A stretch of 64,000 nt of DNA from Escherichia coli (GTDB lineage Bacteria > Pseudomonadota > Gammaproteobacteria > Enterobacterales > Enterobacteriaceae), in assembly GCF_030013595.1 (NCBI RefSeq), contig NZ_CP122768.1; one strand, given 5' to 3'. Positions 25,875-45,369 of the stretch are shown piece by piece. Position 1 is the stretch's first letter; the number at the start of each line of letters is the position of its first letter. The notes under the pieces are model-generated. The model made no database searches, had not been told where the DNA came from, and saw only the letters and a list, made by a program, of their open reading frames with translations. A program made the position numbers and the translations under genes.

Positions 25875-27368
25875 TTAGCCCCAGGTTACCGCTTCCGGTT
25901 TATCACCTCTGGCTTTCATTAATGAATCATTATCAATATCGGCTTTATACTTTAAGAACTTACCATACATTTGTTTTTCAATGTCTGGATTTTTACCTAT
26001 CTGATTAATGGTCTCAAAACGATCGGTTTTGAGGTTGTATAGATACTTTGGCTTATTGTTACGATCGATGATCATTTTCCAGTCACCATCACGTATCGCC
26101 CATTCGTCGGTTGGATCATCCTGGAATGGCATGTCAATTCCGAAGATTAATGGCTTTTCACGTTTTAGCGCCTTGTTCTCAAGGACAGGAACCAACGATT
26201 CGCCATCAAAAGTCCGGTCCGTCGGTAATTTGAAGTTCATCATTTTCGCCAGCGTAGGCATCCAGTCCAGACCATAAACAGGCGTATCTGAAACCATTCC
26301 CTTTGGAAGATGCTTTCCGTATTTAATAATCGCCGGAACACGGATGCCGCCTTCCCAGAGATTATCCTTGCGACCACGTAATCCATCAGTTTCCCCTGCC
26401 AAATTCAGTTCATAAACTTTACGTGCTTCACGGGTTACTGGGCCGTTATCACTGGTAAAAATAACGATGGTGTTATCTTCTTCACCCATCGCTTTGATTT
26501 TATCCAGTACTTTTCCAACCTGAGCATCCAGATAACTGATGTTGGCATAATATTCTCCTGGACCACGCCAGGGTTTATCCGCCCAGTCGCCATAAAATAA
26601 ATCAGGATGCTGCTTCTGATATTCGCTCATATATTGTGAGTACATGTCGAGGTATTTTTTGGGCGAAGCCAGGGGACTGTGCACTTCGGTAAAAGCGACA
26701 TAAAGGAAGAAAGGCTTACTGTCCTTTTTGTTATCCAACCAGTTGACGACTTCCGAACTGACATACTCACCACTCATTTTATCGGCACGAGGTGTGGGTT
26801 GCCCGTTACGCAACCAGCCCGTTGGATAGACCATGCCAAAACGGGGACGCTCCTTCGCATTATCCAGAGTAGCGTCGGTAACAAAACCCGCCGTATTAAC
26901 CAGTGAGTAATCAAAGCCCATATCTTTTGCCTGCGGCTGATCGGTGCGATCGCCGCCTGCATTCAGATGCAGCTTACCCATCATGGCCGTGTCGTACCCT
27001 TGCGCTTTGAGTAGATTAGCAATCGTGAGTTCATTACGCCCTAATGCCACATCTTTTCCCGTTGGGATCCATGAGCGTATGCCGGTACGAAATGGCATCC
27101 GCCCCGTTAATAACCCCGCCCGCGAAGGAGAACTTAAGGGAGCTGGTGCATAGTAGTCAGTAAATTTGACGCCCTCCTGGGCAAGCCTGTCAATATTGGG
27201 GGTTTTAACGATCTGATGTCCATATGTTGCTAAATCACCATAGCCTAAATCATCCGCCATAATGATGACTAAATTGGGTTGTTTAGTCTCGGCAGCTACG
27301 ACTGGATTAAAAGCATTCCCTGTGCAAACTGCAAGGCCGATCAAACTGGCCATTAATGTTTTCTGCAT
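25875..27368 (-). CDS. periplasmic sulfatase, Ser-type (S-x-P-x-R) formylglycine motif
   Basis: Start at Met13 of the listed ORF (RBS AGGGA) gives 497 aa. Signal peptide MQKTLMASLIGLAVCTGNAFNPVVAA. Sulfatase signatures NLVIIMADDLGYGD and PLSSPSRAGLLTGR, then GKLHL, FTSDNGP. Confidence 0.85.
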   Translation of the reverse strand: MQKTLMASLIGLAVCTGNAFNPVVAAETKQPNLVIIMADDLGYGDLATYGHQIVKTPNIDRLAQEGVKFTDYYAPAPLSSPSRAGLLTGRMPFRTGIRSWIPTGKDVALGRNELTIANLLKAQGYDTAMMGKLHLNAGGDRTDQPQAKDMGFDYSLVNTAGFVTDATLDNAKERPRFGMVYPTGWLRNGQPTPRADKMSGEYVSSEVVNWLDNKKDSKPFFLYVAFTEVHSPLASPKKYLDMYSQYMSEYQKQHPDLFYGDWADKPWRGPGEYYANISYLDAQVGKVLDKIKAMGEEDNTIVIFTSDNGPVTREARKVYELNLAGETDGLRGRKDNLWEGGIRVPAIIKYGKHLPKGMVSDTPVYGLDWMPTLAKMMNFKLPTDRTFDGESLVPVLENKALKREKPLIFGIDMPFQDDPTDEWAIRDGDWKMIIDRNNKPKYLYNLKTDRFETINQIGKNPDIEKQMYGKFLKYKADIDNDSLMKARGDKPEAVTWG

Positions 27369-27387
27369 AATTATTCCCTGATGAAAA

Positions 27388-28149
27388 TTAGAAATCATAA
27401 CCAAGCATATAAATCATTTGATCGCCAAAACCATCGTAGCCCAACTTATTATCGAAATAACGCCACGTCACACTGGCTTTCCAGCGAGGATAGAACTTCC
27501 AGGCCACTGTTAAACCGCCATTTAGCCCATTCCGACCAAATTGTTGTTCCGCATAGGCATCATTTCTGTCCAGTTCTATTTCATTCCAGTTAGATAAAAC
27601 AAATTTTTCGTCAAATAACGTAAAAGGTAATACTGCTGTCCAGCCAACAACATAACCATTCCAGCCATTTGTTTGTCCATATTTGGCTGAGACGTAGTCT
27701 CCAGATTGATTATGTAATCCAATATACGGTTTAAAAAACCCCCATGAACCATTCCTGCCGAGGTAGCCCAAACCATAAAACATATCAAGATCGTCACCCC
27801 ATGAGTTATCCCATTGACCATAGATCTTGCCAAAGAAAGTCATATTGGAGTCAAAGAGTCTGACATGTGTCATAGCAGAAACGGTATGATTACGCCCCGC
27901 TACGGCATGGTTAAGCACATTGCTTTCATAAAATGAGTAAAACTCGGCTTCTTTAAAATTCACACCAAAGTCCGCAGTCACTTTCCATACTTCACCACGA
28001 TGAGTGTTAACGAAGCCACTATTCCAGTCAGCATAACCTGCATTTATTGAGCCAAAGGAACCTTTATATTCTAATGAAGAATATGCAGGAAGGTGATAGA
28101 AAATCGTTGTCAGGGCACACGCAATAAGAAGCCGTCTTTTGGCAGACAT
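27388..28149 (-). CDS. Tsx/OmpK-family outer-membrane channel
   Basis: 253 aa. Signal peptide. Aromatic-rich alternating beta-strand pattern. WNGYVVGW...FKPY motifs resemble Tsx/OmpK. C-terminal beta-signal ...MLGYDF. Sits 19 nt upstream of the sulfatase gene on the same strand. Confidence 0.65.
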   Translation of the reverse strand: MSAKRRLLIACALTTIFYHLPAYSSLEYKGSFGSINAGYADWNSGFVNTHRGEVWKVTADFGVNFKEAEFYSFYESNVLNHAVAGRNHTVSAMTHVRLFDSNMTFFGKIYGQWDNSWGDDLDMFYGLGYLGRNGSWGFFKPYIGLHNQSGDYVSAKYGQTNGWNGYVVGWTAVLPFTLFDEKFVLSNWNEIELDRNDAYAEQQFGRNGLNGGLTVAWKFYPRWKASVTWRYFDNKLGYDGFGDQMIYMLGYDF

Positions 28150-28665
28150 ATAATATGAATATGCTCTCCATTCATTGTTTTTATGGTTCCATAGAAATCA
28201 ATACATCAGATAATTCATTTTGATTAAGAACGACTCAGAAAGTATATTTAAAGGTGAATGGCAAAGCGTGATGGAGATCGCAGATTACTTTTACCCCCGG
28301 GTGTGGAGGTATCGTGTTTCAAAAAGTGTGTCTATTTTAAATATCACTCATTGATTTATAGACATTTTTTCCTTATAAAAAAACACTAAATTCTGTACAA
28401 GAATTATTTTGTATCTTCTACTACTTTCTCCAGTAATAACTCACCTTTCAGGCATAACTTAAATCTGCTTGTTCATAATCTCAATTTTTGTAAATGAAAA
28501 GGCACATAAGAGTTAAAATAAACAATGATCTAAAGATTAATTACGCAAAAATGCGAGGCGTCTTCAGGATTAGAATCGATAAAACAGAATGGGTTAAAGA
28601 GAGCGATATAATAGCGGCGGGTGCTTGAGGCTGTCTGTCTCAGGCATTAGCTGAACGGCAGATAG

Positions 28666-28720
28666 AGAAAAGCCCCGAGTGATATTTTACTATCAACCCG
28701 AGGCCCCCTATATGCAGAAC
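28666..28720 (-). ncRNA. sokC: Sok-type antisense RNA of the hokC locus
   Basis: Antisense to the mokC start. The minus-strand sequence GUUCUGCAUAUAGGGGGCCUCGGGUUGAUAGUAAAAUAUCACUCGGGGCUUUUCUC has a 5' single-stranded tail, a long stem-loop (CCUCGGG-U-UGAUA / UAUCA-CUCGGGG) and a U-tail. Coordinates were transferred from my recollection of the K-12 annotation. Confidence 0.6.
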
Positions 28721-28921
28721 ACATGTAGAGTGCCTCTTACTGACCGTAAGGTCAAGGAGAAGAGAGCAATGAAGCAGCATAAGGCGATGATTGTCGCCCT
28801 GATCGTCATCTGTATCACCGCCGTAGTGGCGGCGCTGGTAACGAGAAAAGACCTCTGTGAGGTTCACATCCGAACTGGCCAGACGGAGGTTGCTGTTTTC
28901 ACGGCTTACGAATCCGAGTAA
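28712..28921 (+). CDS. mokC: regulatory overlapping reading frame of hokC (mok)
   Basis: MQNTCRVPLTDRKVKEKRAMKQHK... is in frame with and encompasses hokC, as in hok/mok/sok loci. Confidence 0.7.
   Translation: MQNTCRVPLTDRKVKEKRAMKQHKAMIVALIVICITAVVAALVTRKDLCEVHIRTGQTEVAVFTAYESE
28769..28921 (+). CDS. hokC: Hok-family small membrane toxin
   Basis: 50 aa: MKQHKAMIVALIVICITAVVAALVTRKDLCEVHIRTGQTEVAVFTAYESE. Single TM plus the conserved Hok C-terminus. Confidence 0.9.
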   Translation: MKQHKAMIVALIVICITAVVAALVTRKDLCEVHIRTGQTEVAVFTAYESE

Positions 28922-28943
28922 GAGCAACGGCGGGGAGTGATCC

Positions 28944-30281
28944 CATAAGCGCTAACTTAAGGGTTGAACCATCTGAAGAATGCGACGCCTCGGTGCCTCG
29001 TTAAGACGATGCCTCGCGTTCTTCAATTGCGTTTTGTAGGCTGTCAGGGATACTGTCCCACGAATGGCCACCTGTAAGCTCCAGATGACCATTTTTGTTA
29101 TTCTCCACAACGAGTTAGTTCTTCTTTTCGGATCCGGCACTTCTGGGGGGAAATCCAGCGATGGCTGGATTATGTCGTCAATTAAAAATGCGGCGAGTAG
29201 ATTAGCAAATATCCACGCTTTCGCGAGTTCAGGTTCCTTTGCACGCAAAGCATCCAGGTGCAGCAAACTTTTGAGCCGCTTAAAAGCCAGTTCAATTTGC
29301 CATCGCAGACGGTAACAATCAGCCACTTGCTCTGCTGAATATTCATCTTCCGGTAATGATGTTAGCAATAGCACATGGCCCGCTGCTTCCAGCGTTTCCG
29401 CCTGAACTACTCGTCCTTTTCGACGATTCTCGCTGAGCAGTCGGGTTTTACTGATTAATGCTTTTTCGGGAGGAAGTGATACGGCAATGAGACGTGCCGG
29501 AAAGGGAGCTCCGGCTTTTTTATTACCTGAATTGCCTATCATTACAGTGGTTTCACCGTTCTTACCGCAATCCAGCCCGCGCAGAAAACCCATCATGTCA
29601 AAGCGCATTCCTTCTGCAGTTAACCAGCGCAATCCTCGCCAGTGAACCCGGACGATATAATCAGCTTCTCCAAAAGCAAGTGAGCGGATACATTCGGGAC
29701 GCGAACCGAATCCCCGGTCAGCAATGCGTATCTCGTCTGCCGTTTGCGCAAATCGGTCCAGCCGTTCAGCGTCTCTGCTGTCGGTTAGCTCAAAATCAGT
29801 GAACTGACAGGTATGAGGATCATATCCCATATGTAGTCGCCATTCAGCGCTGCCGCCCCCGGGCGCACTGATTGCTGTTCCATCGACAAGACGCAATCTC
29901 TTTCCGCTTGTACAACCCGTAACTGCGGCGCGTACAGCAAGTGTTTGTGCGGCAAGTATGCCAAACCAGTCGGCGGCATTCCGCAGCCGCTTCAGGAGAG
30001 CCACGTCAGATAATGTTGCAACGTCATGGAGCTGAGCCCATGCAGTGACTTCACGTAATGACATCCCCCCGGGGCCGTAAGCCAGCCCCAGACGTAGCAG
30101 AGTTGCAGCATCACGAATTTCGCGGCGGCGGGTTAGAGCCCCGGCATTACGTGCCGAAGTATCCAGTTCTTCGGGCTTACCAATATGGGCCAGAATTGCT
30201 GACCAGTTATCGTGAGAGTAATTCATCGGCACGTTAAATCATATCAGGCGTAATACCACAACCCTTAAGTTAGCGCTTATG
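28944..30281 (-). mobile_element. IS186 (IS4 family), 1338 bp, flanked by a 10-bp target-site duplication
   Basis: Perfect 23-bp terminal inverted repeats CATAAGCGCTAACTTAAGGGTTG (28944..28966, and reverse complement at 30259..30281). Direct repeats GGAGTGATCC at 28934..28943 and 30282..30291. Confidence 0.95.
28952..30232 (-). CDS. insL: IS186 transposase (DDE, IS4 family); long form ending inside the terminal repeat
   Basis: (MP)MNYSHDNWSAILAHIGKPEELDTSARNAG.... Y-2-R-3-E-6-K motif present (YRLRWQIELAFKRLK). The K-12-equivalent start is the MNYS Met at 30226. The TAG stop lies within the IR. Confidence 0.9.
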   Translation of the reverse strand: MPMNYSHDNWSAILAHIGKPEELDTSARNAGALTRRREIRDAATLLRLGLAYGPGGMSLREVTAWAQLHDVATLSDVALLKRLRNAADWFGILAAQTLAVRAAVTGCTSGKRLRLVDGTAISAPGGGSAEWRLHMGYDPHTCQFTDFELTDSRDAERLDRFAQTADEIRIADRGFGSRPECIRSLAFGEADYIVRVHWRGLRWLTAEGMRFDMMGFLRGLDCGKNGETTVMIGNSGNKKAGAPFPARLIAVSLPPEKALISKTRLLSENRRKGRVVQAETLEAAGHVLLLTSLPEDEYSAEQVADCYRLRWQIELAFKRLKSLLHLDALRAKEPELAKAWIFANLLAAFLIDDIIQPSLDFPPEVPDPKRRTNSLWRITKMVIWSLQVAIRGTVSLTAYKTQLKNARHRLNEAPRRRILQMVQPLS

Positions 30282-30343
30282 GGAGTGATCCCCGCCACTT
30301 TACAGGTGCTCGCATATCTTCAACGCACCCTATTTTTACCCAG

Positions 30344-30365
30344 GCCTGCCCACGGGCAGGCTTTT
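30344..30365. terminator. hairpin between the hokC 3' region and the dnaJ stop (bidirectional terminator-like)
   Basis: gcctgcc-cacg-ggcaggc followed by tttt on the plus strand. It lies 8 nt beyond the dnaJ stop on the minus strand. Confidence 0.6.
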
Positions 30366-30372
30366 GGGGAGG

Positions 30373-31503
30373 TTAGCGGGTCAGGTCGTCAAAAAACTTC
30401 TTCACACCATCAAAGAAGCTCTTTGAGCGCGGGCTGTTGTGCTCGCCGGTTGGGCCACCGAAGCTTTCTTGCAGCTCTTGCAGCAGCTGTTTCTGCTTCT
30501 CGTTCAGGCCTACCGGTGTTTCGACGACAACGCGGCACAGCAAATCACCCTGTGCGCCACCGCGGACAGACTTGACGCCTTTACCGCGCATACGGAACAG
30601 CTTACCGGTCTGGGTTTCGCCAGGCACTTTCAGTTTGACGCGACCATCAAGGGTCGGTACTTCGATTTCGCCACCCAGCGCCGCCATAGCGAAGTTGATC
30701 GGGACTTCGCAATAGAGGTTGTTGCCTTCACGCTCGAAAATCGGGTGCTGTTTAACCTGAACCTGAACGTACAGATCGCCTGCCGGTGCGCCATGCTCGC
30801 CCGCTTCACCTTCGCCCGCAAGACGGATGCGGTCTCCAGTGTCCACCCCTGCCGGGATTTTAACGGACAGCGTTTTGCTGCGCTCAACACGACCATGACC
30901 ATGACATTTGTTGCACGGATCTTTGATCAGCGTACCCCGGCCCTGACAGTGTGGACAGGTCTGCTGCACGGCAAAGAAACCCTGGCGCATCTGCACCTGA
31001 CCAGAACCATGACAGGTCGGACAGGTCTGCGGCTGTGTACCTGGTTTTGCACCGCTACCGTGGCAAACGTCACACTCCTCCAGAGTCGGAATGCGGATCT
31101 CTTTGGTCACGCCACGTACAGCTTCTTCGAGGGTGAGCTCCATGTTATAGCGTAAATCAGCACCGCGCGCCGCACGTTGACGACCACGTCCGCCGCCAAA
31201 AATATCGCCGAAAACGTCACCAAAAATATCGCTGAAGTCTGCGCCGCCGCCGAAACCGCCGCCGCCCATGCCACCTTGCTCAAACGCAGCATGACCATAC
31301 TGATCGTATGCCGCACGTTTTTGCGAGTCGGTCAGAACTTCATAAGCTTCCTTGATCTCTTTAAATTTCGCCTCGGCCTCTTTATCACCCTGGTTACGGT
31401 CCGGGTGGTATTTCATGGCCAGGCGTTTGTAGGCCTTTTTGATTTCACGCTCTTCCGCTGTTTTGGAAACGCCTAAAATCTCGTAATAATCTTGCTTAGC
31501 CAT
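30373..31503 (-). CDS. dnaJ: Hsp40 co-chaperone DnaJ
   Basis: An internal Met gives [40 protein letters not shown]..., 376 aa. J domain HPD, G/F region and four CxxCxGxG zinc motifs. Confidence 0.97.
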
Positions 31504-34288: not shown

Positions 34289-34313
34289 CGCCAGAATATA
34301 GAAGCCACAAAAA

Positions 34314-45300: not shown

Positions 45301-45369
<69 letters not shown>

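Follow-up and report, generated by a model that had tools for sequence, protein, structure and literature searches.

How long is the transposase of IS186? The question is raised by a 64,000-nucleotide stretch of an Escherichia coli genome (RefSeq assembly GCF_030013595.1, contig NZ_CP122768.1; hereafter the window), in which an IS186 element at positions 28944–30281 (minus strand) encodes a transposase of 424 amino acids. A preliminary description of the window, made from its letters, had put the transposase of E. coli K-12 (InsL) at 370 amino acids, had placed the difference at a homopolymer and had offered two explanations: that the long form is native and the short one a frameshift variant, or that the tract is a slippery switch for transposase length. 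Our comparison of IS186 with its relatives leads to an answer that borrows from both. Judged from their reading frames, IS186 and its relatives in the IS4 family of insertion sequences (IS) appear to carry a programmed +1 recoding site between the catalytic body of the transposase and a tail of about 60 amino acids.

The two forms differ by a single base. The tract reads as six Gs on the plus strand (29145–29150) and so as C6 on the coding strand, and alignment to the K-12 genome (NC_000913.3) reveals one C as the sole difference within IS186, with C6 in the window and C7 in K-12. The three K-12 copies (IS186A, IS186B and IS186C) are mutually identical, all carry C7 and are annotated as insL1, insL2 and insL3 with products of 370 amino acids; the length first stated and the one-base difference were thus both accurate, and no K-12 copy shares the six-base tract and the long frame. 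The C7 frame reads ...SLDFPPRSAGSEKKN*, exactly the ending that had been given for K-12, and C6 gives a 424-amino-acid open reading frame (ORF) that runs from an ATG into the terminal repeat (28952..30226, minus strand). Its TAG stop (28952–28954) lies inside the terminal inverted repeat at 28944–28966, and a GTG start at 30232 extends it to 426 amino acids, in agreement with the 424–426 codons first described. This exact long-form protein is already on record (P0122). The element measures 1338 bp with C6, the length of IS186 as first published, and would measure 1339 bp with C7, so that the early sequence or the ISfinder entry may have C6.

Everything catalytic lies upstream of this difference. 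The DDE catalytic domain (amino acids 107–348; 29183..29908, minus strand) is identical in the long and short forms, and the YREK signature, Y-(2)-R-(3)-E-(6)-K, is present at Y305, R308, E312 and K319, ahead of the tract in both, as the preliminary description had it. The protein matches PF01609 (E = 2e-26) and NF033592 (133 bits against a cut-off of 115 bits). The Pfam and NCBIfam models end near amino acid 350, before the tract, and score the two forms equally; they are therefore uninformative on which length is native. Their end point and equal scores would suit an account in which there is no recoding at all, the 370-amino-acid protein being the working transposase, the frame beyond it a relic or a sequence kept for DNA reasons (for example transposase-binding sites near the element end), and the long ORF a deletion or sequencing accident.

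How common, then, is each state? Among 2718 E. coli complete-genome records that hold the tract stretch, 2593 (about 95%) have at least one exact C7 copy and 145 an exact C6, counted per record and not per copy, as the search reports the best place in each record. The 370-amino-acid protein occurs on at least 1000 contigs and the exact 424-amino-acid protein on about 130, at many insertion sites with a separate target duplication at each. The best match to the window in the E. coli collection has 98.9% identity, and the window's nearest relatives, KOr019 and 98203, carry the 370-amino-acid C7 form at the same locus. We considered whether the short form is a K-12-specific mutation and rejected the idea, given the predominance of C7 in E. 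coli records and in these nearest relatives.

Many of the C6 copies in databases are probably long-read miscalls. The K-12 derivative ATCC BAA-196 has C6 at two resident IS186 sites that are C7 in its parent, and further C6 loci come from GCA_9004xxxxx assemblies, presumably long-read-only NCTC genomes. A window assembly full of homopolymer errors was also considered and rejected: in a 42-kb alignment to KOr019, no uncompensated one-nucleotide indel falls inside a gene except that of the IS186 tract, so the assembly is not generally error-ridden. A multi-copy repeat is where polishing fails. The window's C6 is a fused derivative that arose by either a real one-nucleotide deletion or a homopolymer miscall. 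Other tract lengths occur singly: an IS186 protein that reads FPPP (P0004) implies C10 with the short frame kept, and one metagenome IS186 copy has C8 (L099, 3–883). The tract is length-unstable, either in nature or in sequencing. The probable miscalls, of which ATCC BAA-196 is an example, join the RefSeq annotation of 370 amino acids without a frameshift note and the clear mobility of C7 copies as points in favour of a gene that needs no recoding.

The codons past the tract tell a different story from that of a relic. A protein search returned in-frame relatives of 425–442 amino acids (40–43% identity) that align with the long form to its end and, like it, contain S-L-W-R, A-I-x-G and a basic P-R-K/R-R motif. 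Among closer relatives the called proteins have 358–368 amino acids and stop exactly at the ..D-S-P-P site, and others have Ala/Pro/Arg-rich tails that are apparently out of frame. The 68 open codons after the tract match a profile of the tail with E = 3e-23; the profile contains the window sequence itself, and independent relatives match it too. Because of this match and the alignment with the C-termini of in-frame relatives, the 68 open codons are not there by chance. In the window the tail comprises amino acids 362–424 (28955..29143, minus strand), with a linker, two predicted helices, the S-L-W-R and A-I-x-G motifs and a basic P-R-R-R end; ITKMVIWSLQVAIR and LNEAPR are among its peptides.

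We assessed the frame of this tail at 79 loci from one-genome-per-species contigs and 80 loci from metagenomes, using a body profile of the last 82 residues and a tail profile built from in-frame proteins only, and scored the frame in which the tail matched. Across these two independent collections, the tail lies in the +1 frame relative to the body at 91 distinct sites and in frame with it at about 19; only two sites place it in the −1 frame, one a weak match and the other an IS186 copy with C8. The tail thus shares the frame of the body in the window and is displaced by +1 in K-12 and in most relatives. The hosts include Alphaproteobacteria, Gammaproteobacteria, Acidobacteriota, Armatimonadota, Bacillota and Verrucomicrobiota. 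In a tree built from the bodies, the +1 state extends throughout the clade and the in-frame forms are scattered tips. The displaced layout recurs in the closest relatives of IS186 (79–89% protein identity), whose +1 tail is intact wherever the contig covers it. One metagenome locus (L108, junction GAATGTTCCCCTGAAGAC) is an in-frame member of the TCTTCCCCC_TGA clade whose run is shorter by one C, which independently parallels the change from C7 to C6 in the window. An IS186 relative in Candidatus Erwinia dacicola (L007, approximately 721–760) keeps the hairpin described below and TTTTCCCCC_TGA, but a stop interrupts its +1 tail, and the copy is probably decaying.

These comparisons divide the first explanation that had been offered for the two forms. 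Its claim for the long form stands in part, since the tail is kept in distant relatives and the long frame is therefore that of the ancestral full-length protein. Its dismissal of the short form as a frameshift variant does not stand: with C7 in about 95% of E. coli records and the displaced tail in 91 relatives, the interrupted C7-type layout is, on this comparative reading, the conserved wild-type arrangement and not a broken mutant.

A conserved tail in another frame raises the question of whether it is translated. Differences between tails fall at the first, second and third codon positions of the +1 frame with frequencies of 0.30, 0.22 and 0.46. The median ratio of nonsynonymous to synonymous differences (pN/pS) is 0.47 in the +1 frame and below 1 in 44 of 44 pairs; the two remaining frames give 1.0 and 1.5. 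Read in the +1 frame, the tail shows purifying selection, and the ORF in this frame runs for 52–68 codons before it stops about 30 nt from the element end. Elements that require the +1 shift occur in several copies per genome that are 99–99.7% identical and have unrelated flanks, and they are therefore active. All of this makes an account without recoding improbable. A relic would not stay open over such lengths in about 90 diverged lineages, nor would it hold pN/pS at this value in exactly the +1 frame with the others at 1.0 or more; protein motifs are kept across elements that lack DNA similarity, and random decay would give −1 as often as +1 and would scatter the positions of the shift.

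Translation of the tail need not mean fusion to the body. The tail could be a separate small protein, made by internal initiation or by termination-reinitiation in a two-protein system; IS186 itself has a TTG a few bases past the 0-frame stop, at the start of S-L-W-R, and one gene caller gives a 46-amino-acid ORF after the short-form gene (L175). Between the upstream stop in the +1 frame and the conserved tail, however, 31 of the 91 sites have no ATG, GTG or TTG (44 of 91 if ATG and GTG alone are counted), so separate initiation is not conserved as a route. In-frame relatives all carry tail and body as one fused protein, and the conserved run and hairpin described next are not features of start sites. 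We give this two-protein arrangement scarcely any credence.

The stretch within which the shift must fall is as short as 29 nt, and a pyrimidine run always lies inside it. These runs are 6–12 nt long (at least 9 nt at most sites) and end in C3–C8 at the 3' side; in most relatives the C-run has only 3–6 bases. The last three Cs form a 0-frame CCC codon at 89 of 90 sites, and the next base is T at 87 of 90 (A in IS186). The 0-frame codon that follows is a stop at 39 of the 90 sites (mostly CCC_UGA), UGG, UGU or UGC at 24 and other sense codons at the rest; in IS186 it is AGA, a rare codon in E. coli. TCT TCC CCC TGA, TCT CCC CCC TGT and TTT TTT CCC TGG are typical junctions, next to TTC CCC CCC AGA in IS186. 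Nucleotide conservation over 90 nt is highest at CCCC-T-G, third codon positions included. The corresponding tract in the window, UUUCCCCCC (29145..29153, minus strand), is T3C6, with T3C7 in K-12, and its codons are F359 (TTC), P360 (CCC) and P361 (CCA).

A hairpin precedes the run in 71 of 90 relatives, built from 24 different stem sequences. At 66 of the 90 sites the distance from the end of a perfect stem (5 bp or more) to the last C is exactly 11 nt; the background for such stems is 0.15 for a 5-nt range of end positions. Several of the remaining sites have longer, interrupted hairpins with the same end point. The five core pairs are paired in 100% of aligned sequences and show compensatory changes at three of the five, although the alignment behind this count consists of 24 chosen sequences with a simple hairpin and overstates the case; pairing and covariation of the core surpass 500 of 500 shuffles and all slid controls. 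The IS186 hairpin, AAUCCAGC-CAUC-GCUGGAUU (29152..29171, minus strand; 8 bp, about −10.8 kcal/mol), lies directly 5' of the C-run and is followed by UCCCCCCC; the window segment folds with z = −2.9, and the distance from the end of its core stem, CCAGC/GCUGG, to the last C of the run in K-12 is 11 nt. At L053 (2530–2590) and in the related 'ESSP*' clade, CCUCAG 5' of the hairpin can pair with CUGAGG just past the C-run, giving a larger structure that encloses both hairpin and run (−24 kcal/mol, z = −2.3).

The junctions of the relatives bear directly on the second explanation that had been offered, a slippery switch for transposase length. It proved the better of the two, with the amendment that comparative evidence places the switch at the level of RNA or translation and not in the length of the DNA tract, because most relatives have C3–C6 and recently spread copies still need the +1 shift. 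A DNA-level, phase-variable tract would work by replication slippage that toggles C7 and C6, with active transposase made by C6 copies only. Such a switch would sit well with the tract variants in databases (the 145 C6 records, C8 and C10) and with the spread of C6 copies over many insertion sites, each with its own target duplication. It nevertheless seems to us very improbable. A C6 donor would yield C6 insertions, yet 95% of records and all three K-12 copies are C7; the short C-runs of the relatives are poor substrates for replication slippage, yet those elements are multi-copy and require +1; and the hairpin and the conserved T after the run would have no role. The mark of a phase-variable homopolymer, a long tract that varies frequently while both states propagate, was not found in IS186 and its relatives.

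What, then, could shift the frame? A precedent is an IS630-family element of Roseiflexus, whose transposase, according to Penno et al. (2015) as summarised in a 2016 review (PMC5009743), comes from transcripts that lack one C of a T5C5 motif; the slippage depends on a hairpin directly 5' of the motif, and E. coli RNA polymerase performs it too. The IS186 clade shares two things with that element: a hairpin that lies immediately 5' of some 10 nt of pyrimidines with a C-run at their end, and a full-length frame that is reached by the loss of one C, a +1 change. The hairpin ends 10 nt before the last C in the Roseiflexus element; in the IS186 clade the core stem ends 11 nt from that base, and the extended stem of IS186 itself 8 nt. 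There are differences. The Roseiflexus element belongs to the IS630 family and ours to IS4; the shift in Roseiflexus opens the catalytic part, whereas in IS186 it would add a C-terminal tail after a complete DDE/YREK domain; and many motifs of the IS186 clade are interrupted (TCTTCCCCC, CTCTCCCCCC).

Given this layout, slippage of RNA polymerase that is assisted by the hairpin and drops one C is the likeliest mechanism in our judgement, held tentatively and with slightly less than even confidence. Standard decoding of a C7 element would give the 370-amino-acid protein without the tail. As the polymerase passes the run, the nascent hairpin behind the pyrimidine or C run would push it, and the enzyme would realign one base forward, so that a minority of transcripts would lose one C and encode the full-length transposase of 424 amino acids. 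The C6 DNA of the window is identical to the slipped transcript so predicted, the full-length frame being reached by deletion of exactly one nucleotide; in this copy the same loss of one C would have been fixed in the DNA, making the long protein constitutive if the base call is right. Frame layout, direction, hairpin, run and selection on the tail are read from the sequences compared here, and from them we infer a shift during transcription.

Several points weigh against polymerase slippage. The commonest motifs, TCTTCCCCC and CTCTCCCCCC, are not clean T(m)C(n) runs, and realignment on interrupted runs would give rC:dA mismatches; the Roseiflexus work, as summarised in the review, found no tolerance for mismatches of this kind, unless the hairpin had by then melted that part (PMC5009743). 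The pair count given above flatters the hairpin, and the stability of the hairpins, which had been expected to stand out, is unremarkable in these GC-rich genomes (median rank 0.37 among windows of the same gene), so that we rely on position and covariation. The near-invariant 0-frame CCC and the stops that follow it fit a ribosomal mechanism at least as well. The role assigned to the tail below, finally, leans on an analogy with Tn5.

The ribosomal mechanism would act at the same site and give the same 424-amino-acid product. Peptidyl-tRNA-Pro would move from CCC to CCU (or to CCA, in IS186) during a pause with a stop or a slowly read codon in the A site (UGA, UGG or UGU; the rare AGA in IS186), and the upstream hairpin may help by refolding behind the ribosome. 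The near-invariance of the CCC codon, the T after it and the immediate stop at 39 sites all speak for such a slip. CCC_UGA is moreover known to favour shifts: at the end of E. coli pheL, ..TTC CCC TGA, +1 frameshifting reaches about 15%, with a contribution from the penultimate Phe (PMC5009743). Several family members have exactly TTC CCC TGA, matching the pheL end, and IS186 has its TTC CCC CCC AGA. The shift keeps one direction, which in PMC3711429 counts as a sign of ribosomal frameshifting, and CCTCCC_TAG (L117) and the interrupted runs look poor for polymerase slippage. The clade resembles prfB (CUU_UGA_C), pheL (CCC_UGA) and Ty1 (CUU_AGG_C) in a P-site codon that can re-pair in +1 (CCC_N), in a constant direction and, at part of its sites, in a stop as the next 0-frame codon (the rare AGA in IS186); it differs from them in its conserved 5' hairpin and long pyrimidine run, and in that more than half of its sites lack a stop.

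The ribosomal slip is the main rival of polymerase slippage; we consider it rather unlikely, though well short of negligible. At more than half of the sites, CCC is followed by an ordinary sense codon. No Shine-Dalgarno-like stimulator was noticed at the spacing seen in prfB, in an inspection that was not a systematic search, and such a signal is unlikely because the position about 3 nt before the shift codon falls inside the pyrimidine run. The strictly placed, covarying 5' hairpin and the pyrimidine-only run of 9–12 nt have a tested role in polymerase slippage, and we know of no natural +1 ribosomal shift that uses such an upstream hairpin and run. The 2016 review states that no IS element with +1 ribosomal frameshifting had been identified (PMC5009743); a ribosomal case would be the first for IS elements and therefore has the lower prior. 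Polymerase slippage thus remains our preferred, if tentative, explanation for the shift in the IS186 clade.

What would the shift supply? An AlphaFold2 model of the long form (mean predicted local distance difference test score, pLDDT, 82) places the recoding site in a low-confidence linker (amino acids 359–372) that is followed by the tail helices at amino acids 373–389 and 394–409. Among solved structures, only chains of Tn5 transposase match significantly, and they do so over the full length (1MUH, E = 2.6e-9), with a sequence identity between Tn5 and the IS186 long form of only about 16%. The C-terminal helix of Tn5 transposase forms the dimer interface of the synaptic complex. By analogy, the 370-amino-acid product of IS186 would bind the element ends but fail in synapsis, and might act as a regulator; if the tail is needed for synapsis or dimerisation, slippage would keep active transposase scarce. 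Tn5/IS50, whose transposase is a solved structure of the IS4 family, offers a further likeness: its gene also yields a shortened protein, which inhibits transposition. Translation of that inhibitor begins at a second start site and leaves out the N-terminus, whereas the short IS186 product would lack the C-terminus, owing to a change of frame.

Limitation of active transposase by a rare recoding event is also familiar from IS1 and from the OrfA/OrfAB system of IS3-family elements (IS911, IS150, IS3), in which, as could be the case here, the unshifted shorter protein can act as a regulator. Such elements become hyperactive when their frames are fused by engineering, and the C6 copy in the window would be a natural analogue. 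Their ribosomes or transcripts aside, the layouts differ: those elements shift by −1 on heptamers of the A6G type that have structures downstream, and the shift fuses an ORF for DNA binding to one for catalysis; the IS186 shift would be +1, on a C-run with an upstream hairpin, and would add only a C-terminal tail. Relative to known IS recoding, the new aspects would be the IS4 family, the +1 direction, the combination of hairpin and C-run and the addition of a C-terminal tail.

Previous work gives some indication of why such a site could have been passed over. De Palmenaer et al. (2008) list the lack of a frameshift in the transposase gene as a hallmark of the IS4 family (PMC2266710); the window copy is in frame, but K-12 IS186 and the 91 relatives need +1. 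The screen of Antonov et al. (2013) kept only clusters of poly-A/T-type heptamers, and would for that reason miss the IS186 site, and it attributed DDE_Tnp_1 clusters to A-rich slippage. No publication that connects frameshifting or slippage with IS186 or the IS4 family turned up in our literature search, although an earlier mention, for example in ISfinder, may exist. We consider it about an even chance that the whole IS4-family clade, K-12 IS186 included, depends on unrecognised programmed +1 recoding for its real transposase. The clade for which this is claimed spans Proteobacteria, Acidobacteriota, Armatimonadota, Bacillota and Verrucomicrobiota.

The element itself is a typical IS186. Its 1338 bp, measured from repeat to repeat, occupy the dnaJ/hokC site, as does K-12 IS186A, and perfect 23-bp terminal inverted repeats bound it: the one already mentioned, at the 3' end of the transposase gene (28944..28966, plus strand), and one at the promoter-proximal 5' end (30259..30281, minus strand). 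A 10-bp target-site duplication, GGAGTGATCC, flanks the element (28934..28943, with a second copy at 30282–30291) and sits within GGGG-N6-CCCC; the same pattern of a G-run and a C-run occurs at 10 other C6 copies at other loci. Membership in IS186 is supported by this duplication of about 10 bp at a G-rich...C-rich target, by near-identity to the K-12 copies and by the repeats. The gene order is dnaJ (30373–31503, minus), IS186 (minus) and hokC (28769–28921, plus). The host is E. coli, judged to be non-K-12 because its dnaJ has about 15 substitutions relative to MG1655. The insertion is common to K-12, to the more distant lineage of the window and to the relatives of the latter, and it is therefore either old or at a hotspot.

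Other features of the surroundings were noted in passing. As in K-12, the hokC/mokC toxin gene and the sok antitoxin RNA (28619–28921; Rfam RF01794, 119 bits) adjoin the IS186 end; sok was the sole match in an Rfam search of 28000–31000, which found no frameshift element. Sulfatase and OmpK genes lie between hokC and nhaA (about 25900–28150), in KOr019 as well, and K-12 lacks them there. The segment 15231–22136, about 6.9 kb in the window, does not align to KOr019, in which an MFS transporter and GH31 region of about 3.9 kb takes its place. Further differences from KOr019 are an 18-nt length difference at position 45320, in the thr leader region with a GTGGTAATGGTGATGGTG-type repeat, and intergenic A-runs that differ in length at 34308, 45247 and 47636.

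Work on IS186 goes back to 1985, and the element is part of the E. coli K-12 reference genome. If it does depend on recoding, the 370-amino-acid InsL annotation of K-12 describes the unshifted product only, thousands of annotations of IS186 and IS4-like elements are incomplete, with many 'transposases' of 360–370 amino acids being the unshifted product, and the 'no frameshift' trait of the IS4 family has a large exception. A ribosomal shift would make these the first IS elements known with +1 ribosomal frameshifting; a transcriptional one would provide a second, phylogenetically broad example of hairpin-driven slippage on C-runs, which would then be widespread and not a single case in Roseiflexus. 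Because E. coli itself can serve for the tests, the recoding site is experimentally tractable. Among the mutations of production and evolution strains, IS186 insertions are a recurrent class, and naturally fused copies such as that in the window are predicted to be hyperactive, which bears on the genome stability of those strains. Whether real or a miscall, the missing C of the window exposes a conserved recoding site.

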